In this document: piece after piece, positions 3,041 to 18,847 of the stretch
Numbering within the stretch: the first letter of the stretch is position 1
Layout: each line of letters begins with the position of its first letter
From: a virus
Lineage: Duplodnaviria > Heunggongvirae > Uroviricota > Caudoviricetes
Strand: one strand, 5' to 3'
Virus record (IMG/VR): IMGVR_UViG_2645727604_000006
DNA length: 46,540 nucleotides
Notes under the pieces: generated by a model
Database searches by the model: none
What the model saw: only the letters and a program-made list of their open reading frames with translations
Told to the model about the DNA's origin: nothing
Translations under genes and position numbers: made by a program

Positions 3041-3043
3041 CCC

Positions 3044-3475
3044 ATGTCTTACGCCACACCGGAACAGTTCATCAGGGCGTTCAGTGAACGCGAGGCGTGC
3101 ACACTGACGGATGAAGAGATGACCGGGCTTATCAACGAGGAAAAGCTGGCCTCCGCGCTTGCGCGTGCCAGTGCCCAGATTGATGGCTATCTGGTGGGGC
3201 GTTACCGGACCCCGTGGCCTGACAGCCCGGGGATTCTGGTGGGTTACTGCTGCGATATCGCCCGTTATCACCTGGCGACCGATTACCGTATCTGCTCAGA
3301 AGAAATTCAGATGCGCTACCGGGACGCCATCCGCTTTCTGGAGAAAGTCGCGGCAGGACAAATCAACCTCGGGCGGGATACGTCCGGCAGCGTGATCCCG
3401 TCATCGTCACAGGTGCGTATCCGCTCCGGCTCCCGTCAGTTCGGGCGTGAGTCCACGCGGGGAGGTGCATTCTGA
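3044..3475 (+). CDS. Mu gp36-like head-tail protein (DUF1320-like)
   Basis: 143-aa ORF, ATG after AAGGAG; synteny with the Mu late region. Confidence 0.5.
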   Translation: MSYATPEQFIRAFSEREACTLTDEEMTGLINEEKLASALARASAQIDGYLVGRYRTPWPDSPGILVGYCCDIARYHLATDYRICSEEIQMRYRDAIRFLEKVAAGQINLGRDTSGSVIPSSSQVRIRSGSRQFGRESTRGGAF

Positions 3476-3528
3476 TTACTGAAATTGAACGGGCGCTGGT
3501 TGAACGTCTGCGTTGTGGTCTGGGGAAA

Positions 3529-4110: not shown

Positions 4111-4324
4111 GGCGGCTCCCGGGATGAAGTTCCCGATGGAGGATAACGCCCGGAAATACATCACCACGGAAGCGGTGATCGTTGAAAACACCGCTTATTA
4201 CCGGCGCGCTGTTCAGGATGGTGACCTGATTCTGGTGGCTGAAGAGCCTGAAACGGCAGAACAGGACACCGGACCAGAAAAAGCGAAGGCGAAGAAAGAG
4301 AAACAGGTGAGCTCCGATGAGTGA
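4091..4324 (+). CDS. small Mu gp38-like protein, lysine-rich acidic C-terminus
   Basis: 77-aa ORF overlapping the sheath gene start by 8 nt (translational coupling). Confidence 0.4.
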   Translation: MNKMKVKAAPGMKFPMEDNARKYITTEAVIVENTAYYRRAVQDGDLILVAEEPETAEQDTGPEKAKAKKEKQVSSDE

Positions 4325-5738: not shown

Positions 5739-5750
5739 GGAGCCTGATAA

Positions 5751-6125
5751 ATGTCCCTGAAAGAATATATCGGCTCGATTGTGTTGGAAATTGACAGCCA
5801 GGAAATCGAGATCACCGACCTTGATGTTCAGATCAACACCGGGCGAAAGCTGGTCAAGACCATGAACAAAAGCGGCAGGGCTAAAGGCTTTGCCCGTGGC
5901 ATTGCCACCTACGAACTGTCCGTTTCGGCGGTTATTCCTGATACCAACGAGCCGGACTGGGAAAATCTGGAAGGTGTGAAAATCTCGCTGTACCCGCTCA
6001 GTAACAGCGGCAAACGCACCTCTTATCTGGACTGCTTCACAACCGAAGTGGGTGAGAAATACACCGTCGATAATGAAGCGAAAATTGATATCAAAATGGC
6101 TGCACTCAGGAAGGTGGAAGGATGA
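5751..6125 (+). CDS. tail tube protein (Mu gpM-like)
   Basis: 124-aa ORF after the sheath gene, with AAGGAG upstream. Confidence 0.7.
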   Translation: MSLKEYIGSIVLEIDSQEIEITDLDVQINTGRKLVKTMNKSGRAKGFARGIATYELSVSAVIPDTNEPDWENLEGVKISLYPLSNSGKRTSYLDCFTTEVGEKYTVDNEAKIDIKMAALRKVEG

Positions 6126-6505
6126 CGATTATCGCTACACAGACCGGCGAACTGTCCGATGGTCTGGTTTTTAACGGCACCATTCATAAAAACTTTGAGC
6201 TGCGTCTGCCGGTCATGCGTGATAACGGGCAGGCACTGGAAGAAACTGAAGAACGCTTTCAGACAGTGGACGGCTTCGCGGCGGATTATTACTACCGCTG
6301 TGCGGTAATGGCGGCAACGCTGGTCCGTCTGGGGGATATTCCGCAGGAAGAACTGACGGCGGAGCTGTTGCACGACAACATGACGCCGGAAGATTTTAAT
6401 ATTCTGCTGGCATCACGCAACGTCCTGAAGGTAAAGCGGAGCGGCGGGAATCCCGGCTCGCCGGACTCCGGCTCGCAGTCCTTATCCTCGGGCGCTACGG
6501 AATAA
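6122..6505 (+). CDS. tail assembly chaperone (Mu gp41/Y-like)
   Basis: 127-aa acidic protein between the tube and tape measure genes, the canonical chaperone position. Confidence 0.55.
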   Translation: MTIIATQTGELSDGLVFNGTIHKNFELRLPVMRDNGQALEETEERFQTVDGFAADYYYRCAVMAATLVRLGDIPQEELTAELLHDNMTPEDFNILLASRNVLKVKRSGGNPGSPDSGSQSLSSGATE

Positions 6506-6678
6506 CCGAAGAACAAATCATGACCATGAGCCGTCCCGAGCTGGACGGCTGGCTTGCCGCCGTTGACAGGCTGAACGGCGGCGGCTCAGGAAGAAAGGAC
6601 ACCTCACAGACCACCCGCCAGTCATTTAAATCCCTCAGAAAGAAACGCAGAAAAGGTAAACAGAAAAATGGCCGGTAA
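6400..6678 (+). other. -1 frame extension ORF downstream of the chaperone gene; candidate programmed-frameshift product
   Basis: The -1 frame is open from 6400 to the TAA at 6676-6678, overlaps the chaperone 3' end by 106 nt, and ends just as the tape measure gene starts (6668). It encodes ...ITEEQIMTMSRPELDGWLAAVDRLNGGGSGRKDTSQTTRQSFKSLRKKRRKGKQKNGR. The slip site is not identified. Confidence 0.35.
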
Positions 6679-8950
6679 TTTCAAAGTTGGCATGACCCTG
6701 ACTGCGAAGGACGAAGCCTCGCAGGTTCTGGAAAAGGGACAAAAACAGGTTATCAAAGCCACCGAAGGTGTAACAAAGGCAACCCGGAAGGCAGGTGCAG
6801 AGCAGACGCGTACCGGGCAGGAAAGCGTTAACAGCACGAAAAAGGCGGCAAAAGAGATACAGCGTGCCGCCCGTGCCCGGGAAACGCTCGGTATTCGTGC
6901 AGAACGCGAGATCCGGCGTGAAATTTATCAGACGGTTGCCAGCTATAACCGTCTGGCCCGCGCCGGTTTTGAATCTGCGCAGGAGCAGGAGCGCGCCATG
7001 CAGGCCACCCGGGAAAAAGCCCGGGCACTCAAGCGTGAACTGGATGGCGTCACTCAGGCTCAGATGAAGATGGCGAAAACGCCTGTTATCCCTGAACGGG
7101 GGCGTTTTGCCCGTGCGGCTGCATTTGGCGGGAATGCCATGACAATAGGCGGCGGAATTATGGCAGGAGCCGCCATTATGACGCAACCAGTCAGAAATCA
7201 AATGAGTTATGAACGTCAGCTCAGCATGATGGCGAACACGGCGTTCAGTGATGGTGGTCTGGAAGGCAGGCAGTTTGGGCGTGAAAAGCTGAAAAACAGT
7301 ATCCGCGCGGCGGTAACGTATGGTGGCGGAACGAAAGAGGATGCAGCTGAAGCAATGAATGAGATGTTGGCCAGCGGCGCTTTTTCCTGGGATACCGCGA
7401 ATAATCTCTTACCGCAGATTATGAAATTTGCTACTGCATCCGGCGCATCTCCACGCGATCTGGTCACTATGGCGGCCAAAGCTAAACAAACATTTGGACT
7501 GACAGATGACGACCTCCCGGCCATGTTTAATATGGCTGTCGCAGCAGGTAAAGCGGGTAATTTTGAGCTACGGGATATGGCGGAATATCTTGGACCTCAG
7601 ATGGCATTAGCTGGTAACGCCGGAATGAAAGGACTGGATGGACTCCAGAAATTACTGGCATTTAATGAGGTCGCAGGGATTGCCGCAGGCAGCAGCAGTG
7701 AAGCAGGTAATAACGTTGTAAACCTGCTGGCCAAACTTTTCAGTAGTGAATCAGCAACAAGGGCGAAAAGCATCACGATTGATGGCAAAGGTATTGATCT
7801 ACCTGGTACGTTGACCCGAGCTATGGAAAACGGCATTGATCCGATAGAAGCATTTTCACGCCTCACTGATAAAGTCACCGCGAACAACAAACAATATCAG
7901 GAGCTTCAGAAGCGTCTGGCAGCAACAAAAGACAAAGGCCAGCAGGACAAAATCCTAGAGTCTATGGCGAAAATTCTTGAGGGGTTCGGTGTTGGTGAGC
8001 TTGTTGGTGATATGCAGGCACTGAAGGCAATCCTGGCTTACAGGAATAACCCGGAATACCGAAAGCAGGTCGAAACTGAAATCAGTCAGCAACGCACCCT
8101 GCCGGAAGGTCAGCGCGCCGGAGATCTGGATTTTAAATTCATGTCAGGTACAAATGATTTTAAAACCGAACAGGCTAAAAACACGCTTGAATTTTCACAA
8201 ATGGACAGCGTGAAAAAGCTGGCGGATGCATCCGGTACTGTGGCCGATGCCATAAGCTGGGCGGGTGAAAAATTTCCGGGGCTGACCACAGCAGTGGTGG
8301 GTGCCACGACCGCAATTGAAGCGATGACCGCAGCGGCTCTGACATGGGCCGGGATCAAAATCCTGACCGGGGGTAAACCCGGTGGCAAGACTGACGAGGT
8401 TGTCGGTGATGTAATTGAAAACACGGTCAAAAAAGGCAAAGGATTTAAATTCCCCGGCATCGCCGGTAGCCTGCTTTCTTTCGGTGGCACCGTTACGGCA
8501 CTGGCCACTGCAACCAGCCCGGAAGAAGACGCCGCCGTCGAAGGAAGCGAGGAGCGCTGGAAAAATATACGGGCTAAATATCCTCAGTGGCTGATTGATG
8601 CTGCCCGTGAAAAATATCAGCCGTGGTGGCAGTTTGGCGAAGGTTACTCAACAGAAAACGAGAAATGGATCCAGCAGTATCTTGACGAACTGAAAAAAAC
8701 CGGGGTTATCGCCGGTGATTCTCTGCCAACACCAGAACAAGTCCGACAGCAAGCCGGAATGGCAGCGTCTGAAACGGCATCAAAGCAACCCGGACGCATC
8801 ACCCAGCCGGAATACCTTACGCACTGGGGGCCACCTGCCAGCCCCATTAATTTCACCACACAACTGGTGCTCGATGGTCAGGTCGTGGCGGAGGCAGTGA
8901 ACAAATACAACCTTCAGGACGGCAACAGAAGCACGGGAGGAACTTACTGA
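6668..8950 (+). CDS. tail tape measure protein (myovirus, Mu-like)
   Basis: 760-aa ORF, alanine/glycine-rich with predicted helical segments, downstream of the chaperone pair. Confidence 0.8.
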   Translation: MAGNFKVGMTLTAKDEASQVLEKGQKQVIKATEGVTKATRKAGAEQTRTGQESVNSTKKAAKEIQRAARARETLGIRAEREIRREIYQTVASYNRLARAGFESAQEQERAMQATREKARALKRELDGVTQAQMKMAKTPVIPERGRFARAAAFGGNAMTIGGGIMAGAAIMTQPVRNQMSYERQLSMMANTAFSDGGLEGRQFGREKLKNSIRAAVTYGGGTKEDAAEAMNEMLASGAFSWDTANNLLPQIMKFATASGASPRDLVTMAAKAKQTFGLTDDDLPAMFNMAVAAGKAGNFELRDMAEYLGPQMALAGNAGMKGLDGLQKLLAFNEVAGIAAGSSSEAGNNVVNLLAKLFSSESATRAKSITIDGKGIDLPGTLTRAMENGIDPIEAFSRLTDKVTANNKQYQELQKRLAATKDKGQQDKILESMAKILEGFGVGELVGDMQALKAILAYRNNPEYRKQVETEISQQRTLPEGQRAGDLDFKFMSGTNDFKTEQAKNTLEFSQMDSVKKLADASGTVADAISWAGEKFPGLTTAVVGATTAIEAMTAAALTWAGIKILTGGKPGGKTDEVVGDVIENTVKKGKGFKFPGIAGSLLSFGGTVTALATATSPEEDAAVEGSEERWKNIRAKYPQWLIDAAREKYQPWWQFGEGYSTENEKWIQQYLDELKKTGVIAGDSLPTPEQVRQQAGMAASETASKQPGRITQPEYLTHWGPPASPINFTTQLVLDGQVVAEAVNKYNLQDGNRSTGGTY

Positions 8951-10299
8951 TGGGCTGGGCTGAAAACCTGCAAAACGCCTCCTTTCGTGGCGTGCAGTTT
9001 GATGTACTGAACACGGATGAACAAATCAGCCGCGACCATGCGGTCTATGAATACCCGTTTGTTGACGGGGCGGATTTGCACGACCTCGGGCGCAAGGCGC
9101 GACCGTTCCGCATGACGGCGTTCCTGTGGGGGGAGTATTACGAATATAAACTCGAAAAGCTGATCGCCGCCCTGGACGAAGGCGGCGATGGTGAGCTGAT
9201 TCACCCGGTTTACGGCTCCGTACCGTCGGTGATTGTGACCGGCTACAGCATTCGCCATGACGCAGAAAGCCCGGACAGCTGCACCATCGACATGAGCTTT
9301 CTGGAGAACCGCACCGGTAGCGCGTTGTTCAGCACCCCGTTACCGGAGCTGTTCGCGCAACAGTTGTTTGATGAACTGGACACTTTACAGGCGCGGTTAA
9401 GTGATTTTTTTGATGCCGTTGCTGCACCTTTAAATACCGTTAACAGCATGATTAAAAAAGCCCAGACAGTGCGTGCCACACTGGTGAATACCCTGCTGTC
9501 TTTCAAAAGTGATTTTGTCTCCACTGTCGATAATATCGTGTCACTGGCAGGCGAACCCGGAAAATTTATCAATGAACTGGCAGAGGTGCTGGAAATCCAC
9601 ACATCAGATGTCGGGCAACCGGTGCCGGTTCTGCAACGTGTTGATTCTGCCACCCGGACCGGGTTGGCAGGAGAGACGACCGTCGCCAGTTCTGCGACAG
9701 TGATGAACTGCTGGAATAAGGTCATCACTGATATGGATGAATTTGTTGCGCTGCCTGTTGCCCTGGTCAGTGGCGATAAAGTACCGGAGGTGGTACTTCC
9801 TGCGGATGCCTCGCCAGACGATGTGCAGGATGTGAAAGCAGTTTACGCAACACAGGCCGCATCTGAACTGGCCAGTGTTGCAATGGCGATACTGGTTGAT
9901 GATGCGCAGTCAGAACAGCTTATACCGGCGGATATCGGGCGACTGGTCGGGGATGTGCGCACCCGCTTACAGGCTGCCATCACGCTGTTCCGTGAACGCT
10001 ATGAAGGCGAACGCGAACGGATAACCGAAACCGCATCACCGCTGGGGCTGATGTACCCGGAAATCATTCAGAGCATGAAAAACGTGGCGGCATCCGTGCA
10101 GGATGTCGGCCTGCTGGTTCTGTCACGCCGCCCACCGCTGACGCAGAAACAGGTGCAGGCGGACAGCTGTCTGCTGTTGCTGGCGTGGCAGTGGTACGGT
10201 GATTACAGTCGTGCGGCAGAACTGCAACGTCTGAACCCGCAGCTGCGTGACCCGAACAACATAACCGCCGGGGTGGTCATTAATGCCTACGCAAAATAA
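8950..10299 (+). CDS. Mu gpN-like DNA circulation protein
   Basis: 449-aa ORF directly after the tape measure gene (ATG overlaps its stop); the N-terminus matches the Mu N family pattern. Confidence 0.65.
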   Translation: MGWAENLQNASFRGVQFDVLNTDEQISRDHAVYEYPFVDGADLHDLGRKARPFRMTAFLWGEYYEYKLEKLIAALDEGGDGELIHPVYGSVPSVIVTGYSIRHDAESPDSCTIDMSFLENRTGSALFSTPLPELFAQQLFDELDTLQARLSDFFDAVAAPLNTVNSMIKKAQTVRATLVNTLLSFKSDFVSTVDNIVSLAGEPGKFINELAEVLEIHTSDVGQPVPVLQRVDSATRTGLAGETTVASSATVMNCWNKVITDMDEFVALPVALVSGDKVPEVVLPADASPDDVQDVKAVYATQAASELASVAMAILVDDAQSEQLIPADIGRLVGDVRTRLQAAITLFRERYEGERERITETASPLGLMYPEIIQSMKNVAASVQDVGLLVLSRRPPLTQKQVQADSCLLLLAWQWYGDYSRAAELQRLNPQLRDPNNITAGVVINAYAK

Positions 10300-11494
10300 C
10301 GAAGACAAAATCAGCCTGGTCATTGCCGGAAGGTCGCATTCTGACTGGAACAGTTATCGTATTGACAGCGATTTCCTGAAAGCTGCCGACGGCTGGCAGC
10401 TTCAGCTGGGGCTGCCTGAAAAGGTGTTCCCGGCGGATATCGTCCGGGGCGCACAAATCCGGTTGCAGGTGGGAGACGAAACGGTGCTCAGTGGGCGCAT
10501 AGACAGCGTGCGCCGCAGTGTATCCCGTCAGAGCTGCACGCTGACCCTGTCCGGGCGTGATGATGCCGCCATCCTGGTGGACTGTGCCGCGCCAGTGTTC
10601 AGCGCCAACCAGCTGACGCTGGACGAGGTCATCGACAGGATTGTCAGACCGCTGGGGATACAGCGCATCCGTATTCAGGCGTCCGGTGTGTCACGTAATG
10701 ACAAAGTCGTTATTGAGCCGGGGATGCGTGCGTGGGATGCACTGGCCAAAGCTGCCGCCGGTCGCGGCTTATGGCCGTGGTTTGAGCCTGACGGGACGCT
10801 GGTTGTGGGTGGCCCTGACTACACCACCACGCCGGTGGATACGCTGATTCTGAAGCTGAACGGCACCGGGAACAACGTGATGGAGCTGGACGATACCCGG
10901 TCCATTAACGGCTGTTTCTCCGAACTTACTGTGCTGGCCCAGAGCCACGCCCGCCGCGCAGACAGCAAGAAACAGGTGGCCGTGGTGCCGCTGGATATCT
11001 GGAACGAGGACGGCAGCGTGCGCACATTGTCCGGGCAGGACAGCGGTAATACGGACAGTGGCCAGACAGGCATTCATAACATGAAAGCCGTTGCCACCGA
11101 CCCCACCGTGGATTATTACCGCCCGCAGATAATCACCCAGGGCGACACCAGCAATCTGGAGCAAGTGAACTGGCGCGCAAAAAAAATGATGAGTGATGCC
11201 CGCCTGTCGGGGCTGGATATCGTCGCGCTGGTTGCAGGTCATCGCACGGCAGATGGTGTTCTGTGGCAGCCCGGCCAGCGGGTGCGGATTGTCAGCGAAC
11301 TCCACGGCATTGATGCCATCTTTTTCCTGATGGGGCGTGAGTTCAGCGGAGGCCGGAACGGGCAGACAACCCGGCTCCGCTTTAAGGAGGACGGCGTGTG
11401 GATACCTGATGCCTTCCCGCGCGAGAAGAAACGCCATCACCGCAGGGGCAAAAAGAAAAAAGAGGTCGCCATTGTTAAGGTCTGGGAGAAATGA
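10283..11494 (+). CDS. baseplate hub / tail protein (Mu gpP-like, P2 gpD-like)
   Basis: 403-aa ORF in the Mu P position. Confidence 0.65.
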   Translation: MPTQNNEDKISLVIAGRSHSDWNSYRIDSDFLKAADGWQLQLGLPEKVFPADIVRGAQIRLQVGDETVLSGRIDSVRRSVSRQSCTLTLSGRDDAAILVDCAAPVFSANQLTLDEVIDRIVRPLGIQRIRIQASGVSRNDKVVIEPGMRAWDALAKAAAGRGLWPWFEPDGTLVVGGPDYTTTPVDTLILKLNGTGNNVMELDDTRSINGCFSELTVLAQSHARRADSKKQVAVVPLDIWNEDGSVRTLSGQDSGNTDSGQTGIHNMKAVATDPTVDYYRPQIITQGDTSNLEQVNWRAKKMMSDARLSGLDIVALVAGHRTADGVLWQPGQRVRIVSELHGIDAIFFLMGREFSGGRNGQTTRLRFKEDGVWIPDAFPREKKRHHRRGKKKKEVAIVKVWEK

Positions 11495-12144
11495 TGTGGG
11501 ACAAAGTTAATCAGCGCGTACAGCAGGCACTGGCCGCCGTTCGCCAGGCATTCAGGGTGGTGACCGGTACGGTGGACAGTTCGACCAAAGTACAGCTGCT
11601 TCAGCTTAACGGGCTGGCAGGCGAACAGCTGGACGGTGCGGAGTATTTTCAGCATTACGGCCTCACCACATCCCCGCCGCCCGGCTCAATGGGTATTGCC
11701 GTTCCGCTGAACGGCAATACCTCCCATACTGTCGTGGTGGCCACAGAGCACGGCGCATATCGTCTGACGGAACTGAAACCCGGGGAAGTGGCCCTGTATA
11801 CCGATGAAGGCGCGAAAATCGTACTGAAGCGCGGACGGGTTATTGAAACCGAATGTGACGTTTATCGCGTGAAATGCAAACGCTACGAGGTTGAGGCAGA
11901 GGAGAACGCCACATTCACGACACCGTTACTGACAGCCAGTGACAGGCTGACGGTGGAAGGCAAAATCACCGGCAACGGTGGCATGGCCATCAGTGGGGGC
12001 AAGGGATACACTGCCACCTTTGAAGGCAATATCAACCATGTGGGTGGAGTGATTACCTCCGTTGACGTCACCATTAATGGCGTTAAAATCGGAACGCACA
12101 AACATCCAACCCCACACGGCATGTCTGACACGCCGGTTAATTAA
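11491..12144 (+). CDS. baseplate assembly/spike protein (Mu gp45-like, P2 gpV-like)
   Basis: 217-aa ORF with a glycine-rich beta region, in the Mu Q position. Confidence 0.6.
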   Translation: MMWDKVNQRVQQALAAVRQAFRVVTGTVDSSTKVQLLQLNGLAGEQLDGAEYFQHYGLTTSPPPGSMGIAVPLNGNTSHTVVVATEHGAYRLTELKPGEVALYTDEGAKIVLKRGRVIETECDVYRVKCKRYEVEAEENATFTTPLLTASDRLTVEGKITGNGGMAISGGKGYTATFEGNINHVGGVITSVDVTINGVKIGTHKHPTPHGMSDTPVN

Positions 12145-12197
12145 GTGCTGAACACCCTCACCTGATTCTGACCTGTCCATGCTGCCAGACTGGCGGC

Positions 12198-12548
12198 ATG
12201 GACCAGACGATTTCACCTGCAACCGGCGACTACGAACGCCGTCGGATTTATACCCTTCATAACGCGGTTTATCTGCGACTGGCGACGCCGCTTGGCAGTT
12301 ACTGGGCGGATGCGTCGCTGGGGTCACGCCTGCACGAGCTGAAGCGGGAAAAAGACGTTTCCCGTGTTCATAAGCTTGCGGCGCAGTATGCCAGCCAGGC
12401 ACTTCAGCCCCTGCTCGATGACGGGCGGGCAAAATCCATTACCGTTGACACAAAACCGGGGCAGCGCGGCTGGTTGTTGCTGTTAATCACCGTCACGGAT
12501 AACGCGGGCACACCGCAGACGTTTGAACACCCTGTGAGGATTATGTAA
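12198..12548 (+). CDS. baseplate protein (Mu gp46-like, P2 gpW-like)
   Basis: 116-aa ORF between the spike and J-like baseplate genes. Confidence 0.55.
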   Translation: MDQTISPATGDYERRRIYTLHNAVYLRLATPLGSYWADASLGSRLHELKREKDVSRVHKLAAQYASQALQPLLDDGRAKSITVDTKPGQRGWLLLLITVTDNAGTPQTFEHPVRIM

Positions 12549-13627
12549 TGCCGTTTCCTGTTCCGGGCGTTGCTGAAAACACAGAACGCCAGCTACGTGA
12601 TATCGCTAACGCCCTGCCGGGCGAAACCATCGACACCGGCGCTGACAGCGATTACCGCATTCGTGCAAATGCCGTATCCGGCGTGGCGGACGGACTGTAT
12701 ATGCATCAGGGGTGGATACTCCGTCAGGTGTTTCCTGATACGGCAGACCCTGAATATCTGGAGTTGCACTGCCGCACGCGCAATGTTTTTCGTAAAAAAG
12801 CAACGGCCTCATCCGGTCCGGCAGTGATTACCGGCACACCCGGTAAAACGCTGCCAGCCGGTGCGGAAATTCGTGGTGAAGGTGTCAGCGTGGCCACCGC
12901 AGCAGACTGCACCGTCGGTGATGAAGGCAGCGCAGAGGTGACGGTAAAAAGCACTGCCACGGGTGCACAGACGAATGCATCCACGACTCAGACGGCAACG
13001 CTGGTCAGCCCACCTGAAGGCATCAACAGCACGGTGACGATTAAATCCCTGACCGGCGGAACGGACAGGGAAAGCGACGCCGACCTGCTGGCGCGTTATC
13101 TGGATATTCTGCGCAGGCCGCCCGCTGGCGGTAATAAATATGATTACAAACGCTGGGCGCTGGAAGTGGATGGCGTTACGTCTGCGTATGTGGAGCCGTT
13201 GCGTCGTGGACTGGGGACGGTTGATGTGGCCATTACGTCAGCCAATGACCTCCCTTCGCAGGAACTGATTAATGCCGTGCTGGCACATATTGAGGAAGTC
13301 CGCCCGGTGACAGCGAAGGACACGATGGTGCTGGCCCCGACGAAAAAAGCCGTTGATTTCGTTGTCCGGGTAAAAACCAGTGGTCTTACTGTTGAACAGA
13401 TAAAACCACAGATAACTGAAGTTATCACGGATTTTATGAACCGGCTGGAGCCGGGGCAGGAATTAATTATTTCACAACTGGAAACTCAGATTTCATTAAT
13501 TTCTGGCGTCAGTGACCGGCGAATTATTATGCCGTCAGATAATGTAAAAGCAGTTGTCAATGAATCCACATGGGAGTGGCTGCGTCCGGGGAGTATTGAT
13601 ATCCAGCCATTTCCCCGGGAGAGTTAA
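12548..13627 (+). CDS. baseplate J-like protein (Mu gp47-like)
   Basis: 359-aa ORF whose ATG overlaps the previous stop; typical baseplate wedge size and position. Confidence 0.7.
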   Translation: MPFPVPGVAENTERQLRDIANALPGETIDTGADSDYRIRANAVSGVADGLYMHQGWILRQVFPDTADPEYLELHCRTRNVFRKKATASSGPAVITGTPGKTLPAGAEIRGEGVSVATAADCTVGDEGSAEVTVKSTATGAQTNASTTQTATLVSPPEGINSTVTIKSLTGGTDRESDADLLARYLDILRRPPAGGNKYDYKRWALEVDGVTSAYVEPLRRGLGTVDVAITSANDLPSQELINAVLAHIEEVRPVTAKDTMVLAPTKKAVDFVVRVKTSGLTVEQIKPQITEVITDFMNRLEPGQELIISQLETQISLISGVSDRRIIMPSDNVKAVVNESTWEWLRPGSIDIQPFPRES

Positions 13628-13630
13628 TAC

Positions 13631-14203
13631 ATGAATACGGTTGATTTATTTCGTGCCATGTTACCACCGGTCAGCTATGACCCGAACGGGAAATATATTT
13701 CAGCAGAACTGAACGCAGAAGCAGCCATTATGGATGAAGTAAAAGCGTCAGCTGCACGAGTGCTTGCATCTGTCACACCATTTTACGCATCCATGACGCT
13801 GTCTGACTGGGAACGAGTGTATGGAGTAATACCCCGCGACGGTGCCACACAGCAGGAACGCCGAGAAAATATTCTTATAAAGATGGCTGCAACTGGTGGG
13901 TTATCTATCCCTTATTTTAAACAACTTGCAGCCAGCCTCGGGTACACCATAACAATTACTGAACTTCATCCATTCAGAGCGGGGATAAACCGATGTGGTG
14001 ATCGTCTCTATATAACAGATGCCCGATGGATTTGGCAGGTTAATGTCACAGGAAGCAGAACGCCAGCCTACAGATTCAGAACCGGAGTATCTGCTGCCGG
14101 GGAGCCGTTACTTTCCTTTGGTGCCCCTGTACTGGAAGAAACATTTAAAGACCTTAAACCCGCTTTTACTTATTGCCATTTCACATATAAGGAGGAGCAG
14201 TAA
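13631..14203 (+). CDS. tail protein (Mu gp48-like, P2 gpI-like)
   Basis: 190-aa ORF between the baseplate J gene and the tail fibre gene. Confidence 0.6.
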
Positions 14204-15027
14204 TGCAAAATCTGATGCCCCCGATAAATACACCGGATCAATTGTTTCATGATGGTGACCCCACTCAGGGGATAGAAGGAACCCTCGTGACTGCTGGTTA
14301 TTTAAACAATCAGCAGGGGGCAACCCGTGATTTACAGCAGGAACTCCTTAATGTTCTTGGTGGTGCACATATTCAACCTGACCCCAAAAAAACGGATCAG
14401 CTACTTACCGCGCTTCGCGCGTTGCTGTTAAGCCGCAAAAATCCGTTTGGCGATATCAAATCGGACGGCACAGTACCAACGGCTCTCGAAAACCTTGGTT
14501 TGGGAGAAGGTGCTCCAGCTATTGGCGTTCCGTTCTTCTGGCCGTCCGCAGCAATGCCAGATACCGTAATCGATAGCTGGTCCAGCATGGTGTTTTTGAA
14601 GTTCAACGGCGCGAAATTCTCTGCCACTGATTACCCTGTGCTGGCGAAAGTGTTTCCGGCGCTGGCATTACCTGACGCACGCGGTGATTTCATTCGTATC
14701 TGGGATGACGGGCGCGGGATTGATGTCGGACGTACCCTACTTTCAGGGCAATCACACACAATTATGGATCATGCACACAATATGGAATTGTGGACGGGGG
14801 ACGGGCTTGCCGCAGGAAGTGCACGGGAAGGAGTAAACCCAGGAATACTGGCTACATATGGTGACGGGGGAATAGTTAAAACGGACGAACCCGGTCTTAA
14901 GGTGCCTTCCTCACTACGAGCTCTTAGCTCTCGTAGTGTTAAACGTTATGGTGAAATTAGTGGACATGTAGGTACAGAAACCCGTCCACGAAATATTGCA
15001 TTTAACTTTCTGGTGAGGGCTAAATAA
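14203..15027 (+). CDS. tail fibre protein: constant N-terminal part fused to the currently expressed variable part
   Basis: 274-aa ORF. The crossover site at 14484-14509 lies inside the gene (about codon 94-102). The C-terminus [16 protein letters not shown] resembles tail-fibre tips. Confidence 0.75.
14484..14509 (+). repeat. left crossover site of the invertible segment (gix/cix/hix-like)
   Basis: TCTCGAAAACCTTGGTTTGGGAGAAG. The core TTGGTTTGGGAGAAG (14495-14509) recurs as its exact reverse complement at 16379-16393. Confidence 0.65.
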
Positions 15028-15620
15028 TGAAACCTGTTTTTGATGAAAATGGGCTGGCTACAGTGCCGGGTGATATGCGTTGTTTTTATTATGATGCAGT
15101 AACGTCTGAATATACGGGCTGGTCTGATGAATATATTAATACTGGCGTAAGTATGCCCGCCTGTTCCACTGGTATTGACCCGGGCGAATACATTCCGGGG
15201 AAAGTGGCAGTATTTACGGGTAAGGGATGGCGCCATGAAGAAGACCACCGCAATGAGACTGTTTACTCAATCGAAAATGGCGCAGCTGTTACAGTGGATT
15301 ATATCGGTGCCATCAAAGACGGTTATGTCACGCTTTCACCGTTAACGCCATACGATAAATGGGATGGTGAGAAATGGGTGACGGATACCGAGGCACAGCA
15401 TAGCGCCGCACTAGACGCGGCAGAAGTAAAGCGCCAGTCGCTGATTGATGCTGCAATGGCTTCCATCAGTCTGATTCAGCTGAAATTACGAGCCGGGCGG
15501 AAGCTGACGCAGGCAGAAACCACCCGACTTAACGCTGTGCTGGATTACATTGACGCGGTGGAGGCAACAGATACCAGCACCGCGCCTGATGTCATCTGGC
15601 CTGAACTGCCGGAGGCGTAG
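15027..15620 (+). CDS. tail fibre assembly chaperone (Tfa, U-like)
   Basis: 197-aa ORF immediately after the fibre gene. Its C-terminus (LDYIDAVEATDTSTAPDVIWPELPEA) is paralogous to that of the minus-strand Tfa. Confidence 0.75.
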   Translation: MKPVFDENGLATVPGDMRCFYYDAVTSEYTGWSDEYINTGVSMPACSTGIDPGEYIPGKVAVFTGKGWRHEEDHRNETVYSIENGAAVTVDYIGAIKDGYVTLSPLTPYDKWDGEKWVTDTEAQHSAALDAAEVKRQSLIDAAMASISLIQLKLRAGRKLTQAETTRLNAVLDYIDAVEATDTSTAPDVIWPELPEA

Positions 15621-16032
15621 GCCATTCAATATCTGGCGCACCGGAAGTATCGACCAGTTCCAGTGCGTCCAGATAATCCAGCCACAAATTATATTGCGCC
15701 AGTTCCTCACCTTTCAGGCGACCAATCGCCGCTTTACCAGGCCATTGCTTACTGTTTATGTATTCGTTGACCTGATTAATCAATTGCTGCTTTTCCAGTT
15801 CGGCTGCGGCAATTTGTTCCTCATGAGTTGGCGGTGGAATATCAATCCATGCAGGCATTCCGTCGATGACACCTCTGTATTTTCCTTCTGGTGCTTCCTT
15901 CATAAATTCGGCGGCAACAGTGTCGTCAATTTCGATTCCATCATCGGGCCATTCACCGGATTCCTGATAAGCGATTTTAAGCTCCACAGGGAAAAACGCA
16001 TTTTTATCGGCACTGAAAATATATTTCTGCAT
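15592..16032 (-). CDS. alternative tail fibre assembly chaperone (U'-like)
   Basis: 146-aa ORF ending LDYLDALELVDTSGAPDIEWPTPPAVQAR, convergent with the + Tfa and overlapping it by 29 bp. Confidence 0.7.
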   Translation of the reverse strand: MQKYIFSADKNAFFPVELKIAYQESGEWPDDGIEIDDTVAAEFMKEAPEGKYRGVIDGMPAWIDIPPPTHEEQIAAAELEKQQLINQVNEYINSKQWPGKAAIGRLKGEELAQYNLWLDYLDALELVDTSGAPDIEWPTPPAVQAR

Positions 16033-16034
16033 TT

Positions 16035-16433
16035 CTACCGTCCTATCGAAATATAACTGAATCTGTATTGCTGTGAGATATCACTGGTTGCCACACGCCA
16101 CGCTGAATTACTGATATGTTCAAAATTTACAGACAAAACCTGCGGGGCAGGATTCGACGGGTCTGACTGAACGGCATCAGACATAACACTGACTGAAACC
16201 ATCGGCTGATTAGGGAATGGTATAGGGAAGTGTCCACTGATAAAGCGGGTCGTGTTTCCTGAAAAAGTGCCAAACTGAACAATATATCCACCTGGTAGCC
16301 TGAACCATCCCGAACCAGAAGCGAATGCTCCCATATCCGGTATCTGATTATCTCCTGTGCCCACATCCCTTTTCGCCGCTTCTCCCAAACCAACGTTTAA
16401 GAAAATGCAGAGATTACGGCTAACTGGCATCAT
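16035..16433 (-). CDS. alternative tail-fibre variable segment (S'-like); silent in this orientation
   Basis: Minus-strand ORF running through the right crossover site. It encodes NVGLGEAAKRD at the site, matching [10 protein letters not shown] in the + fibre gene. No constant N-terminal part is attached in this orientation. Confidence 0.6.
   Translation of the reverse strand: MMPVSRNLCIFLNVGLGEAAKRDVGTGDNQIPDMGAFASGSGWFRLPGGYIVQFGTFSGNTTRFISGHFPIPFPNQPMVSVSVMSDAVQSDPSNPAPQVLSVNFEHISNSAWRVATSDISQQYRFSYISIGR
16379..16405 (+). repeat. right crossover site of the invertible segment, inverted
   Basis: CTTCTCCCAAACCAACGTTTAAGAAAA, whose reverse complement contains TTGGTTTGGGAGAAG. Confidence 0.65.
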
Positions 16434-16460
16434 CTCCGGTTTTTATTCAGGGGGATGCTC

Positions 16461-16556
16461 ATGCTTATTGGCTATGTACGCGCATCAACAAATGACCAGG
16501 ACACCGATTTACAACGCAATGCGTTGAACTGTGCAGGATATGAGCTGATTTTTTGA
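16461..16556 (+). pseudogene. truncated Din-family serine DNA invertase (Gin/Pin/Cin-like); only the first 31 codons remain
   Basis: Encodes MLIGYVRASTNDQDTDLQRNALNCAGYELIF then TGA, which matches the conserved N-terminus of Gin/Pin/Cin invertases (MLIGYVRVSTNDQ...). Similarity stops near codon 31; downstream sequence is unrelated. Confidence 0.75.
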
Positions 16557-16592
16557 GGGTAAATCATCAGCATGAGACTAATAATTTAGCGT

Positions 16593-16652
16593 CCAATTCT
16601 GGGCTTTTTGGTTGCGCTCTCTCCGCCCAGAATTGTGCGCCAATTAGCCCAG
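16593..16652. promoter_or_regulatory. palindromic repeat cluster in the junction region; candidate operator or hairpin
   Basis: CCAATTCTGGGC (16593-16604) with an 11-bp perfect inverted partner GCCCAGAATTG (16625-16635), 20-bp spacer. A third partial copy CCAATTAGCCCAG at 16640-16652. Confidence 0.3.
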
Positions 16653-17253
16653 AAAAAAACGCGAAGTTACAAACCGTTTGTCGCAACAGCTGGTGGTCAG
16701 TGTCGCTGCACACCTGTTGTTACGGCATGAATGCAGATTACCAAATCACCTGGCTGTAAGTAACCACAGAGAACTTTACCTGACTGTGGGGGGCGAGTTG
16801 TGCAGGAACTTAACCGCTGGTTTCGTGACGGAAGAGGACTTTATGTTCATGTTATTCGTTGGGAGCCAGAAACACAGCGCGTTATCTATCTTCGCAAAGA
16901 CTACCCGCATGAGTGCTTTAGTCCTTTGTGGAAATTCAGGCGTGATTTTGTTGAGTGTGAAGGACCACCAGCATATTGATTCTGCAATTCCGGGACGTTA
17001 CACTGTTCAGGCACCTTATAAAGCGGGTGCCGGGATTGGCGTCCTGAAATTGTCAACGGCGATGTATGACGCGCCAGCGTCTTTTTTATCGTCCGCATTT
17101 GCTCACATCCAGATTATGGTGGGCTGGGCGGGGGCACCGAAAGGTGCGCCGGTCTCCGTTGACGCCGGTTACGCCAACCCCGTCCAGTTCACCACCAGTG
17201 AAATTGGCGTTTCCGGTGGTGGAAGTTTTTCACTGTCAACGGAGGCTGCCATC

Positions 17254-17811
17254 ATGGCTACGATCCAAGCCCTCACTCAACCTGAAATCACCATTGACAA
17301 CGGCCAGGCCGTTACCACTTCTTTGGCTGTTGCCAACTTCTTCTCCAAGCGTCACGACGATGTGCTGAAAAAGATCCGCACTCTGGATTGTTCCCCTGAG
17401 TTTTGTGCCCGCAATTTTGCGGAGACATCGATTTCGGTAAATCAACCGAACGGTGGTACACGCAAGCTCCCTTGCTATCAAATCACACGAGACGGTTTTG
17501 CGTTTCTTGCTATGGGTTTCACGGGTAAACGTGCTGCCCGGTTCAAAGAGGCATACATCAATGCCTTTAACCAGATGGAAAAACTGCTTTCAAAGCCATC
17601 CACGCTGAGCGATGCCGCAGATAACGCCAGCGTGCTTTACTCCCACCTGTCGGTAATCCACAAGGTCTGGCTGCAGCAGCTTTATCCTATGTTGGCAAAA
17701 GCTGAATCTCCGCTGGCTGTTAGCTTATATGATTATATTAATGATGCTTCGGCGCTGGCCTGCCTCATAAATTTGTCGCTGAACCCTTCAGAGGTAAGGG
17801 GGCGCAAATGA
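17254..17811 (+). CDS. Rha-family phage regulatory protein
   Basis: The N-terminus MATIQALTQPEITIDNGQAVTTSLAVANFFSKRHDDVLKKIR fits the Rha pattern. GGAGG at 17241-17245 lies 8 nt before the ATG. The frame is open much further upstream (track ORF from 16678), but that part does not look protein-like. Confidence 0.6.
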   Translation: MATIQALTQPEITIDNGQAVTTSLAVANFFSKRHDDVLKKIRTLDCSPEFCARNFAETSISVNQPNGGTRKLPCYQITRDGFAFLAMGFTGKRAARFKEAYINAFNQMEKLLSKPSTLSDAADNASVLYSHLSVIHKVWLQQLYPMLAKAESPLAVSLYDYINDASALACLINLSLNPSEVRGRK

Positions 17812-18032
17812 TCCGGAATATTTTCAAACGGTTTACCAATCAGACTTTCCGTTGTCCTCGTCCGGGTCAGTGGTACACCACACCTGCAGGGCATGTTCTA
17901 CGTGTTAGCCTGGTTGACCGTGAATGTCAGAAGGTGATTTGTGAACCGCTGGGCCGTAATTACCGCGTCAGTATGCCGCTTATAGCCTTTCGCTCCGGAA
18001 AAAACATGAAGCATCTCGGAGGTGCTGCATGA
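17808..18032 (+). CDS. hypothetical small phage protein
   Basis: 74-aa ORF translationally coupled to both neighbours (ATGA overlaps). Confidence 0.35.
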   Translation: MIRNIFKRFTNQTFRCPRPGQWYTTPAGHVLRVSLVDRECQKVICEPLGRNYRVSMPLIAFRSGKNMKHLGGAA

Positions 18033-18847
18033 GTATGGAGCTGATGGTTAAAGCGATGAAAATTCGAGTGGGTAATCCATTGCGAAAACTGGTTCTGATC
18101 AAGCTGGCTGATAATGCCAGCGATCAGGGGGAGTGCTGGCCCAGCTACCAGCATATTGCTGACCAGTGCGAGATTAGCAAACGTTCTGTGATGAATCATA
18201 TTGCGGCCCTTTGTGAGTCCGGGCTGGTAAAAAAAGTCACCCGGAAAGGTGAAAAAGGTAACTCAAGTAATATCTATCTCCTTCATCTGGATGGTGCAGG
18301 AGATTCACTAGGGGGTAGTGCAAATAATTCACTATCTGGCGCAGCAAATTCACCAGGTAGTGCAGGAGTTGCACCAGGGGGTAGTGCAGGAGATTCACCC
18401 AGAACCAGTCACTCTTTTGAACCAGTCAAAGAACCAGTCAATGAACCAATAGCTGTTGGTGCATCAGTTGATGAGTCTGTGCGAGTTCGTTCAAACCGAC
18501 CGGAATACTCTCCGGAGTTTGAGCAGGCATGGCTGGCATATCCCAAACGTGCTGGTGGCAATTCAAAATCTGCAGCCTTCAAAGCCTGGAAAGCCCGTTT
18601 GAATGAGGGGGTAAACCCCGAAACCATGCTGGAAGGTGTGAAACGCTACGCGGGCTGGGTATCTGCGATGGGTAACAGCGGCACACAATTTGTGAAACAG
18701 GCTGTCACGTTCTTTGGTCCGGATCGTCATTTCGAAGAATCCTGGGAAGTTCCTGCGGTATCTGCAGCCAGACGTGAGGACCCGTACTTCAAAGCCAGTT
18801 ACGACAACGTGGACTACAGCCAGATCCCGGCAGGATTCAGGGGGTGA
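18029..18847 (+). CDS. putative replication initiator / winged-helix DNA-binding protein with an internal repeat-encoded linker
   Basis: The N-terminus (LRKLVLIKLADNASDQGECWPSYQHIADQCEISKRSVMNHIAALCESGLVKK) looks like a wHTH. A low-complexity linker is encoded by DNA repeats. The C-terminal domain contains AWLAYPKR. The architecture is analogous to lambda O with ori iterons inside the gene. Confidence 0.45.
   Translation: MSMELMVKAMKIRVGNPLRKLVLIKLADNASDQGECWPSYQHIADQCEISKRSVMNHIAALCESGLVKKVTRKGEKGNSSNIYLLHLDGAGDSLGGSANNSLSGAANSPGSAGVAPGGSAGDSPRTSHSFEPVKEPVNEPIAVGASVDESVRVRSNRPEYSPEFEQAWLAYPKRAGGNSKSAAFKAWKARLNEGVNPETMLEGVKRYAGWVSAMGNSGTQFVKQAVTFFGPDRHFEESWEVPAVSAARREDPYFKASYDNVDYSQIPAGFRG
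18293..18440 (+). repeat. iteron-like direct repeats inside the initiator gene; candidate origin
   Basis: GGTGCAGGAGATTCAC at 18293-18308 and 18383-18398. GTAGTGCA three times. ATTCAC four times. GAACCAGTCA at 18402, 18419 and 18431. Confidence 0.4.

Follow-up and report, generated by a model that had tools for sequence, protein, structure and literature searches.

A long open frame upstream of rha overlies a DUF4222 gene and an isrK/C4-type antisense-RNA cassette beside a Mu-like prophage end

The region that precedes the phage gene rha in this DNA is a known type of system, an antisense-RNA switch of the isrK/C4 kind, and is in that sense largely ordinary. With a probability of about 85%, the long stop-free run of codons that leads into rha is a chance-assisted concatenation of four unrelated features and not a gene. 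In the window (the whole stretch of DNA analysed, 46,540 nucleotides), the frame of the rha start codon, ATG 17254, is open from 16648, directly after TAG 16645–16647, to TGA 17809–17811, as read from the sequence and its list of open reading frames. A first-pass annotation had counted 192 open codons upstream of rha, and TTG 16678 does lie exactly 192 codons before ATG 17254; for this interval it had offered a degenerate gene remnant at a fusion junction, a long structured leader or an unannotated protein fused to Rha.

The antisense-RNA cassette and rha

The part of the run nearest to rha is occupied by two small RNAs, their mutual target sites and a short open reading frame:

16976–17253, plus strand: isrK/C4 antisense-RNA cassette of the P1 c4-icd-ant, P4 seqA-CI and Gifsy-1 isrK-orf45-anrP type
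16976–17004, plus strand: putative isrK promoter, found by eye (–35 TTGATT, 17-nt spacer, –10 TACACT)
17011–17087, plus strand: isrK-type sRNA of 77 nt, equivalent to P4 seqA (Rfam RF01394)
17036–17042 and 17051–17059, plus strand: C4 target copies a1 and b1 inside isrK, assigned by complementarity to C4
17112–17199, plus strand: antisense RNA of the C4 type, the counterpart of P4 CI and of Salmonella STnc1160 (Rfam RF01695)
17153–17164 and 17171–17177, plus strand: C4 loops b′ and a′
17204–17245, plus strand: downstream C4 targets a2 (17204–17210) and b2 (17234–17245), assigned by loop complementarity
17116–17253, plus strand: orf45-like upstream ORF of 46 codons, starting in the C4 5′ stem and without a stop before rha
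17254–17811, plus strand: rha, encoding a Rha-family antirepressor-like regulator of 185 aa (Pfam Phage_pRha, NCBIfam TIGR02681)

Both RNA matches span their models from end to end: isrK reaches 62.2 bits where the gathering score is 50 (model positions 1–77 of 77), and C4 reaches 81.4 bits where it is 45 (positions 1–87 of 87). The 3′ end of isrK forms a terminator-like hairpin (17068–17081) followed by U6, and the isrK and C4 pair recurs in all 13 homologous phage loci tested and in phage P4. The DNA at 16960–17040 is almost invariant across all homologues, and in other loci mosaic breakpoints fall just upstream of the putative isrK promoter. This candidate agrees with the consensus at 8 of 12 positions, under the threshold of the scan tool, and stands 6 nt before the first base of isrK; isrK of Gifsy-1 has its own promoter (PMC4825925).

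Comparison of nine alleles revealed the pattern expected of paired RNA: within the C4 stems, 243 of 243 pair cells hold standard pairs, as against 34–49% in slid controls, and nine pairs show compensatory changes on both sides. The single-stranded loops are far from uniform, with at least seven different b′ loops and four different a′ sequences among the nine alleles, and complementary copies accompany them, a1 and a2 in nine of nine and b1 and b2 in eight of nine; the b2 match of the cdtI allele is weak and ambiguous. Loops and targets covary across the nine alleles, and this covariation explains the variation in 17041–17253. In the window, b′ pairs over 12 nt with UGUCAACGGAGG (G-U allowed), and b2 covers the Shine-Dalgarno sequence GGAGG (17241–17245), which lies 8 nt before ATG 17254. 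Where it is clear in the other alleles, b2 likewise abuts or overlaps the Shine-Dalgarno sequence and ends 8–11 nt before the ATG. Of the two published motifs, c4 and c4-a1b1 (PMC2864571), the Rfam model of the latter falls short of its gathering score, 46.7, with 21.6 bits here, and reaches 50.5 bits in VT2-Sakai.

That rha begins at ATG 17254 behind this GGAGG, as first annotated, is supported by the position of b2, and Rha of phage phi191 is annotated from the equivalent ATG. Its product matches Pfam PF09669 Phage_pRha (97.4 bits against a cut-off of 29.9, E 8e-28) and, as the 185-aa translation of 17254–17808, TIGR02681 (90.8 bits against 45.95, E 5e-26); NCBIfam recognises the Rha domain only. 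Analysis of codon periodicity, which had been suggested for the whole interval, separates rha sharply from what precedes it: rha has a pN/pS of about 0.25 and a normal third-position excess (32, 20 and 67 substitutions at the three codon positions), whereas 17041–17253 has no periodicity (32, 35 and 37; 26, 20 and 29; 11, 12 and 16; 13, 9 and 16).

In the switch that we propose, a promoter overlapping the DUF4222 stop codon would make the 77-nt isrK sRNA, and read-through of the isrK terminator would yield a leader from which the C4-type RNA could derive. The C4 loops a′ and b′ would pair with a2 and b2 in this leader, and rha, a gene of antirepressor type, would be kept untranslated by C4 because b2 covers the GGAGG of ATG 17254. 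The decoy targets a1 and b1 in isrK may then titrate C4, or refold the leader, and so turn rha translation on. We infer the promoter, the RNA processing, the direction of regulation and the antirepressor role of Rha from three analogues: P1/P7 c4-icd-ant, P4 seqA-CI and Gifsy-1 isrK-orf45-anrP. The idea of a structured leader is borne out in this way for 17011–17253 only, the part that holds the isrK and C4 RNAs and the targets over the rha ribosome-binding site.

The upstream ORF, whose ATG 17116 lies at +106 from the isrK 5′ end, would be the equivalent of Gifsy-1 orf45, here fused in frame to rha; an orf45-type stop overlapping the rha start is absent. It is likely the only part upstream of rha that is translated in the rha frame. 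Fusion of a further protein to Rha holds marginally, for these 46 codons, and not for the remaining frame, which overlaps a spacer, RNA genes and a DUF4222 gene whose own reading frame is a different one.

The DUF4222 gene and the long frame

Two further features lie between the cassette and the prophage end described below:

16672–16799, plus strand: remaining part of the spacer that separates ymfL, a cII-like gene, from DUF4222, 100% identical to intact loci from 16672 on
16800–16979, plus strand: DUF4222 gene, 59 aa, in a frame other than that of rha (Pfam PF13973, PHROG 1343)

The DUF4222 product matches PF13973 with 51.1 bits against a cut-off of 27 (E 9e-14) and PHROG 1343 with E 2e-36; its start codon is GTG here and ATG in Stx1 phages, and the gene has an annotation of its own in UPEC129 and in phage 1720a-02. 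When substitutions in this gene are sorted by codon position of the long frame, they number 1, 13 and 1; 1, 12 and 1; and 5, 27 and 7, the excess falling on the DUF4222 wobble position, which carries 38 of the 58 segregating sites. Selective constraint at 16800–16979 sits in the DUF4222 frame, not in the long frame. The N-terminal ~100 residues of the long frame show a pN/pS of 0.7–1.3, and the spacer, compared with Salmonella homologues, has 7, 12 and 13 substitutions without codon periodicity. In intact phages this spacer forms the 5′ part of an annotated 386-aa ORF.

That ORF had escaped the first reading, which called the frame unannotated: the whole of it is entered in RefSeq and in several phage records as a Rha-family or antirepressor protein of 383–386 aa (RefSeq WP_001087312.1, cdtI orf44, ST64B sb41 and Stx2a_1447_13 model the long protein). 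From 16672 the frame in the window is 100% identical to codons 8–386 of WP_001087312.1; the first seven codons of the model, with its ATG, lie beyond the Mu-like insertion, and the start codon is missing here. Taken at face value, the frame would encode a genuine 386-aa "Ash-Rha" regulatory protein that has lost its first seven codons and its start codon through this insertion, a reading that we regard as quite unlikely.

Several features of the frame speak for such a protein. It is open in the eight homologues read first and in most of 80 IMG/VR loci; in intact phages its ATG overlaps the ymfL stop codon (ATGA) with GGAG 9 nt upstream; the two indels in its variable part are multiples of 3; it carries both a Phage_ASH and a Phage_pRha match (Pfam PF10554, 73.7 bits against a cut-off of 26, E 2e-20, for the former); and its openness is improbable by chance. 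The long frame stays open in 4% of trials in which the overlapped DUF4222 gene is synonymously recoded, in 12% of equally long windows of the real genes in this DNA, and in 10% of dinucleotide shuffles of the upstream spacer. The first annotators' sense that such a run exceeds chance is borne out in that the run is unusual, because the joint chance, for the part upstream of isrK, is only ~1e-2 to 1e-3. It is also without a stop in 21 of 21 distinct DUF4222 sequences (~3 expected, p about 0.04–0.08).

Against these points stand the features that the frame runs through. Firstly, its codons 8–100 overlap the DUF4222 gene, whose frame bears the constraint. Secondly, the "Ash" part occupies exactly the bases of isrK and C4 and varies as RNA does, without codon periodicity. 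The Phage_ASH match, to residues encoded by 16999–17287, makes the translation recognisable after all, and the translation originally quoted was itself correct, but the match is misleading: the same model also matches the obsolete P4 "cI gene product" ORF (E 4e-16), which contains the C4/CI RNA, and the P4 "cI" product is known as an RNA (PMC4825925). Thirdly, stops in this frame among homologous loci, which had been named as a sign of non-coding sequence, do occur: one in IMG/VR locus L043, and others in VT2-Sakai and Tyrion, which have isrK and C4 and stops in all three frames of the cassette. Fourthly, Gifsy-1 orf45 has a stop overlapping the anrP start. Finally, PGAP itself switches between the 386-aa model and DUF4222 plus a 300-aa model. 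A PDB sequence search with a 284-aa frame gave no match, and a literature search on "Ash" together with "Rha" returned nothing informative. Together, these data indicate that the protein under selection comprises only the final 185 residues, or 231 if the upstream ORF is counted; the "Ash" part probably does not fold as a protein, and both the Phage_ASH match and the 386-aa "Rha family" model of RefSeq seem to result from conceptual translation of these RNAs.

Three coding solutions were considered and set aside. A two-domain Ash-Rha fusion cut at codon 8 was rejected on the substitution pattern, the DUF4222 match in another frame and the Rfam matches. A start of Ash-Rha at GTG 16957, suggested by ATGs that L043, L058 and L025 have at the equivalent position and by PHROG profile boundaries, was rejected because the L043 ATG and its Shine-Dalgarno sequence are by-products of DUF4222 codons, and because the shared breakpoint at ~16960–16970 is better read as the place where a module of promoter, isrK, C4 and rha begins on its left. 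In a +1 frameshift programmed at UAU-UGA, which would carry ribosomes out of DUF4222 and into the rha frame, the P-site tRNA could not plausibly re-pair, and the promoter and isrK account for the conservation of the DNA at this point.

Some translation of the long frame may occur nonetheless. An ATG likewise opens the frame in several other contexts (L010, L025 copy 2 and L058), and these ATGs, together with the one that overlaps ymfL behind GGAG, therefore make some translation possible. A more ambitious version, which we think unlikely, is that the frame is kept open on purpose: in intact phages, ymfL-coupled ribosomes would cross DUF4222, the isrK terminator and C4 into rha, and on lytic early-promoter transcription this translation would melt the switch, override C4 and yield an N-terminally extended Rha, while the form made from the internal isrK promoter in the lysogen would be C4-repressed. 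If true, an antisense-RNA immunity switch would here be overridden by translation, with a dual-coding overlap of roughly 60 codons with DUF4222.

The Mu-like prophage end and its junction

The left part of the interval belongs to a different element:

16461–16556, plus strand: Gin/Pin-type DNA invertase remnant of 31 codons, the last Mu-like gene (Pfam Resolvase N-terminal domain, E 5e-4)
16557–16671, plus strand: right end (attR-like) of a Mu-like transposable prophage, ending ...GTTACA at 16671
16597–16604, plus strand: TTCTGGGC, R3-like, inverted relative to the other two copies; left palindrome arm
16625–16632, minus strand: TTCTGGGC, R2-like; right palindrome arm
16647–16654, minus strand: TTCTGGGC, R1-like, at positions 18–25 from the terminus; the "third half-site"
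16672–16675, no strand assigned: AACC, 4-bp target duplication of the Mu-like insertion, from the left junction in L093 and the uninterrupted target

Positions 1–16671 of the window encode Mu gpI, gpT, sheath, tape measure, N-like, gpP and baseplate J proteins (Pfam). Matches to about 10 E. coli genomes end at 16670/16671 beside differing host genes (eutC, mhpT and others), and homology to intact lambdoid phages starts exactly at 16672. Two of the E. coli insertions, inside eutC and mhpT, were read at sequence level; they and the insertion in this lambdoid prophage have common termini, TGTGGGG...GTTACA, and in all three the target duplication is 4 bp (CACT, ATTC and AACC). The reciprocal left junction, ...GGCAAATAACC joined to TGTGGGGTAG..., is present in IMG/VR contig L093, and the uninterrupted target in intact phages reads GCAAATAACCGTTTG. 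The ORFs that follow the left junction in L093 agree in size and order with the repressor, ner, MuA and MuB genes that the annotation of the E2348/69 prophage places at its left end; genes for a Mu transposase and an AAA ATPase are annotated at the left ends of both E2348/69 and CFS3292. IMG/VR loci L012 and L019 share the identical right junction, which was recovered in IMG/VR contigs only: an exact search of one-genome-per-species contigs did not find it, nor did any of the collection's complete E. coli genomes contain it.

The junction at 16671/16672 is thus the part of the "remnant at a fusion junction" that exists, and it has the form of a clean Mu-like prophage insertion. The Mu-like prophage entered a lambdoid prophage 21 bp past the stop codon of the cII-like gene ymfL, duplicating AACC, and beyond the junction, on its right, the early-right operon of the lambdoid prophage goes on intact with the spacer and then the DUF4222 gene. 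We find it highly improbable that the interval is instead a decaying pseudogene or a scar where a deletion has joined one prophage, at its tail-fibre/invertase end, to another, at its early region. The abrupt change of homology, the truncated invertase gene just left of the junction and the lack of this junction in the complete E. coli genomes could each be taken that way; but the break falls exactly at a conserved TG...CA terminus that the same prophage uses at other chromosomal sites, the left junction with its AACC duplication exists, and the degeneracy once supposed is lacking on the right, where the sequence is 100% identical to uninterrupted phages and DUF4222, isrK, C4 and rha are intact. 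As for the invertase, about 20 related prophages have the same truncated form; it is shared by every relative of the Mu-like prophage and not peculiar to this junction. The insertion parts the DUF4222, rha and replication genes from the lambdoid early promoter and leaves the putatively self-promoted isrK-C4-rha cassette intact.

The perfect 11-bp inverted repeat noted upstream of rha is present as described, CAATTCTGGGC (16594–16604) and GCCCAGAATTG (16625–16635), with its third half-site at 16647–16654. The 46.5-kb window contains just three copies of its core, TTCTGGGC, all of them within 16597–16654 and within the last 75 bp of the prophage, two facing inward and one inverted. The E2348/69 and CFS3292 prophages likewise have three copies at their left ends, the first equally far from the terminus as at the right end, and there they form no hairpin.

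An RNA element acting on rha expression, as a terminator or leader structure, is an improbable role for the palindrome at 16594–16635, even though it folds well (16585–16665: –34.4 kcal/mol, z = –5.3), includes a terminator-like site (16591–16604, then TTTTT) and lies upstream of rha on the same strand. It moves with the Mu-like prophage to unrelated sites such as eutC and mhpT, intact rha loci lack it, and the same 8-mer in triplicate at the other prophage end, without a hairpin, is the pattern of protein-binding repeats at transposon ends. The TTCTGGGC repeats are probably transposase-binding sites of the Mu-like end; the palindrome is part of that end, a different element, and has no connection with rha.

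Craigie, Mizuuchi and Mizuuchi are said to have described, in 1984, three MuA-binding sites in each of Mu attL and attR, with TG...CA termini, and the target duplication of phage Mu is 5 bp. The present element resembles Mu in its head, tail and baseplate genes, in an invertible tail-fibre segment with an invertase remnant on the right, in left-end MuA and MuB genes, in termini of the TG...CA type with three repeated sites per end, and in insertion at unrelated host sites, often inside genes. Unlike Mu, it has a TTCTGGGC core unrelated to the MuA consensus, a 4-bp duplication in three of three insertions, a truncated invertase and no mom-like gene.

Relatives of the switch and implications

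The closest parallel to the cassette is isrK-orf45-anrP of Salmonella Gifsy-1. There, orf45 starts at +107, is translated and is coupled to anrP, its stop overlapping the anrP start as AUGA (PMC4825925, Hershko-Shalev et al. 2016). The same study reports that orf45's nucleotide sequence is conserved and its amino acids vary, that orf45 is fused to anrP in S. dysenteriae, that STnc1160 is processed from orf45, and that IsrK is a structural homologue of the P4 SeqA RNA (PMC4825925). The window shares with Gifsy-1 an isrK sRNA with a terminator-like hairpin of its own (the RF01394 match), a read-through leader holding a C4-like RNA (processed there, as STnc1160), an upstream ORF whose first AUG lies ~106–107 nt from the isrK 5′ end and which is conserved in nucleotides but not in amino acids, and an antirepressor-like gene directly downstream. 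Residues G28 and G31 of Gifsy-1 isrK, whose mutation inactivates IsrK, fall in the a1 site, 17036–17042 here. Unlike in Gifsy-1, the upstream ORF is without a stop and in frame with rha, and the cassette, which in Gifsy-1 lies beside antQ, is here part of the early-right operon, where ymfL and DUF4222 precede it and the replication genes follow.

In P1 and P7 the immI operon comprises c4 antisense RNA, icd and ant (PMC8198154, summarising Citron & Schuster 1990). The likeness extends to a C4 RNA (RF01695) whose single-stranded a′ and b′ are complementary to an upstream a1/b1 and a downstream a2/b2 pair, to the overlap of the downstream pair with the ribosome-binding site of the gene leading into the antirepressor, and to the allele specificity of loops and targets, as between P1 and P7. 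It ends at the regulated gene, which is of the Rha family and not P1 Ant, at the position of a1/b1 inside a separately terminated sRNA (isrK), and at the setting of the element, in lambdoid prophages.

In P4 (seqA, CI RNA, seqC), the isrK model matches upstream of the C4/CI match, and the C4 model matches inside the old "cI" ORF, where CI RNA would be expected. The P4 CI RNA acts by premature transcription termination of the replication operon, not by blocking an antirepressor ribosome-binding site.

By these comparisons the region is one more case of an antisense-RNA switch of the c4/CI/isrK class, by which phage antirepressors are gated, and it lies beside an ordinary Mu-like prophage insertion. 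For annotation, where databases usually give one 386-residue protein, the 383–386-aa "Rha family/antirepressor" models and Phage_ASH appear to be conceptual translations over DUF4222, in another frame, and two structured RNAs, a misannotation on which RefSeq, Pfam and AntiFam curators could act. For the phages themselves, the nine alleles with matched loops and targets suggest that RNA "immunity" among Stx-converting, cdt and Salmonella lambdoid phages comes in hetero-specific types, and such types could influence cross-induction between co-resident prophages.

A prophage end inside the rha frame

The reading frame of rha, a Rha-family antirepressor-like gene, is open from 16648, directly after TAG 16645-16647, to TGA 17809-17811 (sequence reading and ORF list). 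The 192 open codons upstream of ATG 17254 that the first-pass annotation had claimed are real and run from TTG 16678. That annotation had offered a gene remnant at a fusion junction, a structured leader or a protein fused to Rha; the structured leader and the rha start hold, and there is a genuine junction, formed by an insertion.

In complete E. coli genomes and phage records, matches to the window begin at 16672 and extend only rightward, at up to 100% identity, and with 16440-16700 as query the matches in other genomes end at 16671-16674. Window 1-16671 codes for Mu-type proteins (protease/scaffold gpI, major head gpT, sheath, tape measure, the N-like DNA circularisation protein, gpP and baseplate J), and contains a 31-codon remnant of an invertase as well as an invertible tail-fibre segment:

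15592-16433, minus strand: alternative tail-fibre and assembly genes, part of the invertible segment
16461-16556: truncated invertase gene, 31 codons, after the invertible segment

The same truncation is common to about 20 related prophages, so members of this lineage can probably no longer switch tail fibres.

The same prophage lies at differing chromosomal positions in about 10 genomes, where matches stop at 16670/16671; it interrupts eutC in E. coli E2348/69 and mhpT in CFS3292, and its far end in both carries Mu transposase and AAA ATPase genes. Reading both ends in these two strains gave the termini TGTGGGG...GTTACA and flanking 4-bp repeats, CACT and ATTC. In an alignment with intact phages, the window sequence picks up again at AACCGTTTG, which is codon 8 of the gene that they annotate as MNSLTAN/NRLSQQ..., and the predicted reciprocal left junction, GGCAAATAACC/TGTGGGGTAG, was found in L093, an IMG/VR contig with cI, cro and ymfL before the junction and, after it, ORFs whose sizes and order match the E2348/69 left-end repressor, ner, MuA and MuB. 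Because of this reciprocal junction, and of the 4-bp repeats and shared termini at other sites, the 16671/16672 junction arose by transposition, which duplicated 4 bp (AACC); an assembly artefact and a deletion scar were rejected. Two further IMG/VR contigs (L012, L019) have the right junction of the window. Direct repeats of 4 bp flank the prophage in 3/3 insertions examined (AACC, CACT, ATTC; window 16672-16675, L093 2263-2285), as against the 5 bp typical of Mu.

The 11-bp inverted repeat reported upstream of rha is indeed perfect (CAATTCTGGGC, 16594-16604, and GCCCAGAATTG, 16625-16635), and the third half-site is present as well, the 8-bp core TTCTGGGC recurring at 16647-16654. The three copies of this core, found nowhere else in the 46.5-kb window, all fall in the final 75 bp of the prophage. 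Three are also present at the left end in both E2348/69 and CFS3292 (CAATTCTGGGCGGAG, TGATTCTGGGCGGAT, TTTTTCTGGGCGCTT), and at either end of the prophage the first copy spans positions 18-25, counted from the terminus. Mu has three MuA sites per end, and the TTCTGGGC copies, likewise three per end, show this arrangement and are putative transposase-binding repeats. The RNA folding score of the palindrome is strongly negative (z = -5.3) because one copy is inverted. Since the palindrome moves with the prophage and is missing from intact rha loci in the alignment with intact phages, it is outside rha regulation.

A DUF4222 gene in another frame

In intact phages the gene order is cI, cro, ymfL (a Pfam cII/CP76 match), long ORF, 74-aa ORF and replication protein, and the long frame is annotated as a single 383-386-aa protein (RefSeq WP_001087312.1, cdtI orf44, ST64B sb41, Stx2a_1447_13), on which Pfam places Phage_ASH (E 2e-20), then Phage_pRha (E 8e-28). 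The NCBI pipeline calls one 386-aa Rha-family protein in E. coli UTAK-1 (L001 3980-5140) and, on the same sequence in UPEC129 (L091 1329-2340), a DUF4222 gene and a 300-aa Rha protein whose model starts at the ATG equivalent to window 16909.

Substitutions were counted by long-frame codon position against diverged homologues. The Rha part behaves normally (counts 32, 20, 67; pN/pS about 0.25); across codons 8-117 changes fall at the second position and pN/pS is 0.7-1.3, with counts at 16800-16941 of (1, 13, 1), (1, 12, 1) and (5, 27, 7). This pattern in the upstream third is the wobble position of an ORF in an alternative frame:

16800-16979: DUF4222 gene, 59 aa, in a frame other than that of rha (Pfam E 9e-14; PHROG 1343 E 2e-36)

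The ORF has an ATG start in Stx1 phages, is annotated as its own gene in UPEC129 and phage 1720a-02, and holds 38 of its 58 segregating sites at its third position (21 distinct sequences). Codon periodicity was sought and not found in the 128 nt between the junction and DUF4222 (7, 12, 13). Within the ymfL-DUF4222 spacer one block (CATGAATGCAGATTACCAAAT; window 16727-16760, with equivalents in loci L002/L009) is kept between E. coli and Salmonella phages, the rest having diverged.

A probable RNA switch ahead of rha

The 'Ash' part of the long frame is most probably an RNA switch, with these components:

17011-17087: isrK RNA, Rfam 62.2 bits (gathering score 50), full length
17112-17199: C4 antisense RNA, Rfam 81.4 bits (gathering score 45), full length
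ATG 17116, +106 from the isrK 5' end: orf45-equivalent ORF, 46 codons, in frame with ATG 17254 and uninterrupted by a stop up to it

isrK ends in a terminator-like hairpin and T6, and a c4-a1b1 match falls below threshold at 16998-17050. The isrK and C4 pair was present in 13/13 homologous phage loci tested, and also in phage P4. Across nine alleles, C4 stem cells are standard pairs in 243 of 243 cases (slid controls, 34-49% paired), with compensatory double changes in nine C4 pairs. The b' loop (second hairpin, 17153-17164) is complementary to UGUCAACGGAGG at 17234-17245, a site that covers the Shine-Dalgarno of ATG 17254, and to UGUCAACGG, which lies within isrK at 17051-17059; the complement of the single-stranded a' ACGCCAA (17171-17177), UUGGCGU, stands at both 17204-17210 and 17036-17042. 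The nine alleles differ in these elements, with b' loops of at least seven kinds and a' sequences of four. All nine have complementary copies of a1 and a2, and eight have complementary copies of b1 and b2, the cdtI b2 match being weak and ambiguous. The C4 loops covary with their targets across these alleles, and the variable Ash 'residues' fall on the RNA loops and targets.

The proposed rha start, ATG 17254, stands, with Shine-Dalgarno GGAGG at 17241-17245 and phi191 Rha annotated from the equivalent ATG; we conclude that rha starts there, or at 17116 with the upstream ORF included. Codon periodicity was sought in 17041-17253 and not found (32, 35, 37; 26, 20, 29; 11, 12, 16; 13, 9, 16). In P4, the ORF formerly labelled 'cI gene product' has a Phage_ASH match (E 4e-16) and encloses a C4/CI match, with an isrK (seqA-like) match just upstream of the latter; in VT2-Sakai and Tyrion, isrK and C4 lie ahead of unrelated antirepressor genes and all three frames contain stops, and the IMG/VR locus L043 has a long-frame stop upstream of the cassette. 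Given this lack of periodicity, the P4 match, the stops and the phi191 annotation, we do not count the Phage_ASH match as independent evidence of a protein at the window locus. A two-domain Ash-Rha protein cut by the insertion, with its two Pfam matches, was dropped given the substitution pattern, the DUF4222 frame and the RNA matches. The long frame has no stop in the eight homologues examined first and is open above chance (chance of an open frame 4-12% for the DUF4222 overlap and 10% for the spacer; 0 stops observed in 21 DUF4222 variants vs about 3 expected), and in intact phages its ATG overlaps the ymfL stop codon, with GGAG upstream; a translated long form overriding the switch in lytic growth is therefore conceivable, and we consider it unlikely.

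Upstream of the RNA switch, the DNA at 16960-17040 is almost invariant among homologues and compatible with a putative promoter directly upstream of isrK; this candidate consists of TTGATT (16976-81) and TACACT (16999-17004), 17 nt apart, and overlaps the end of DUF4222 at its stop codon. In L043, L058 and the second tandem copy of L025, mosaic breakpoints lie just left of this putative promoter. Five IMG/VR loci (L025-L028, L038; locus positions about 640-2350) carry two tandem isrK-C4-rha cassettes of differing C4 loop/target specificities; the second cassette opens with codons 1-11 of the 74-aa gene found downstream (MIRNIFKLFTN), fused to it shortly before the putative isrK promoter.

The locus shares the architecture of the P1/P7 immI operon, where C4 RNA prevents expression of icd and ant (Citron & Schuster 1990 as cited in PMC8198154), and of Gifsy-1 isrK-orf45-anrP, where a 77-nt IsrK RNA with its own promoter and terminator precedes a translated 45-codon ORF and an antirepressor-like gene (PMC4825925). 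In Gifsy-1, orf45 is conserved at the nucleotide level but variable in amino acids and is the source of a stable processed RNA, STnc1160; in S. dysenteriae it is fused to anrP (PMC4825925); its counterpart in the window, the ATG 17116 ORF, continues into rha without a stop. The P4 immunity factor is also an RNA (PMC4825925 and references there).

Downstream genes and the separated cassette

Two genes follow rha:

17808-18032: 74-aa ORF, its start overlapping the rha stop (ATGA)
18029-18847: replication gene, HTH/DnaD-like

The 74-aa ORF matched no Pfam or NCBIfam family; it has a weak local likeness to DUF4222 (alignment score 31-37). Inside the replication gene (window 18290-18400), several direct repeats some 18 bp long (GGTAGTGCAGGAGATTCAC-like) resemble origin iterons embedded in an O-type gene. 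In phi191 a second structured RNA, Rfam sRNA-Xcc1 (79.6 bits; L095 2523-2606), lies downstream of the isrK-C4-rha cassette, directly upstream of a second antirepressor gene.

Each component can be assigned to an already known type of element, and the chief value of these results is the correction of a common annotation. With the Mu-like prophage in place, the lambdoid early promoter lies on the other side of the insertion from DUF4222, the switch, rha and the replication genes. The isrK-C4-rha cassette, which presumably has its own promoter, is still intact 305 bp beyond the end of the prophage.
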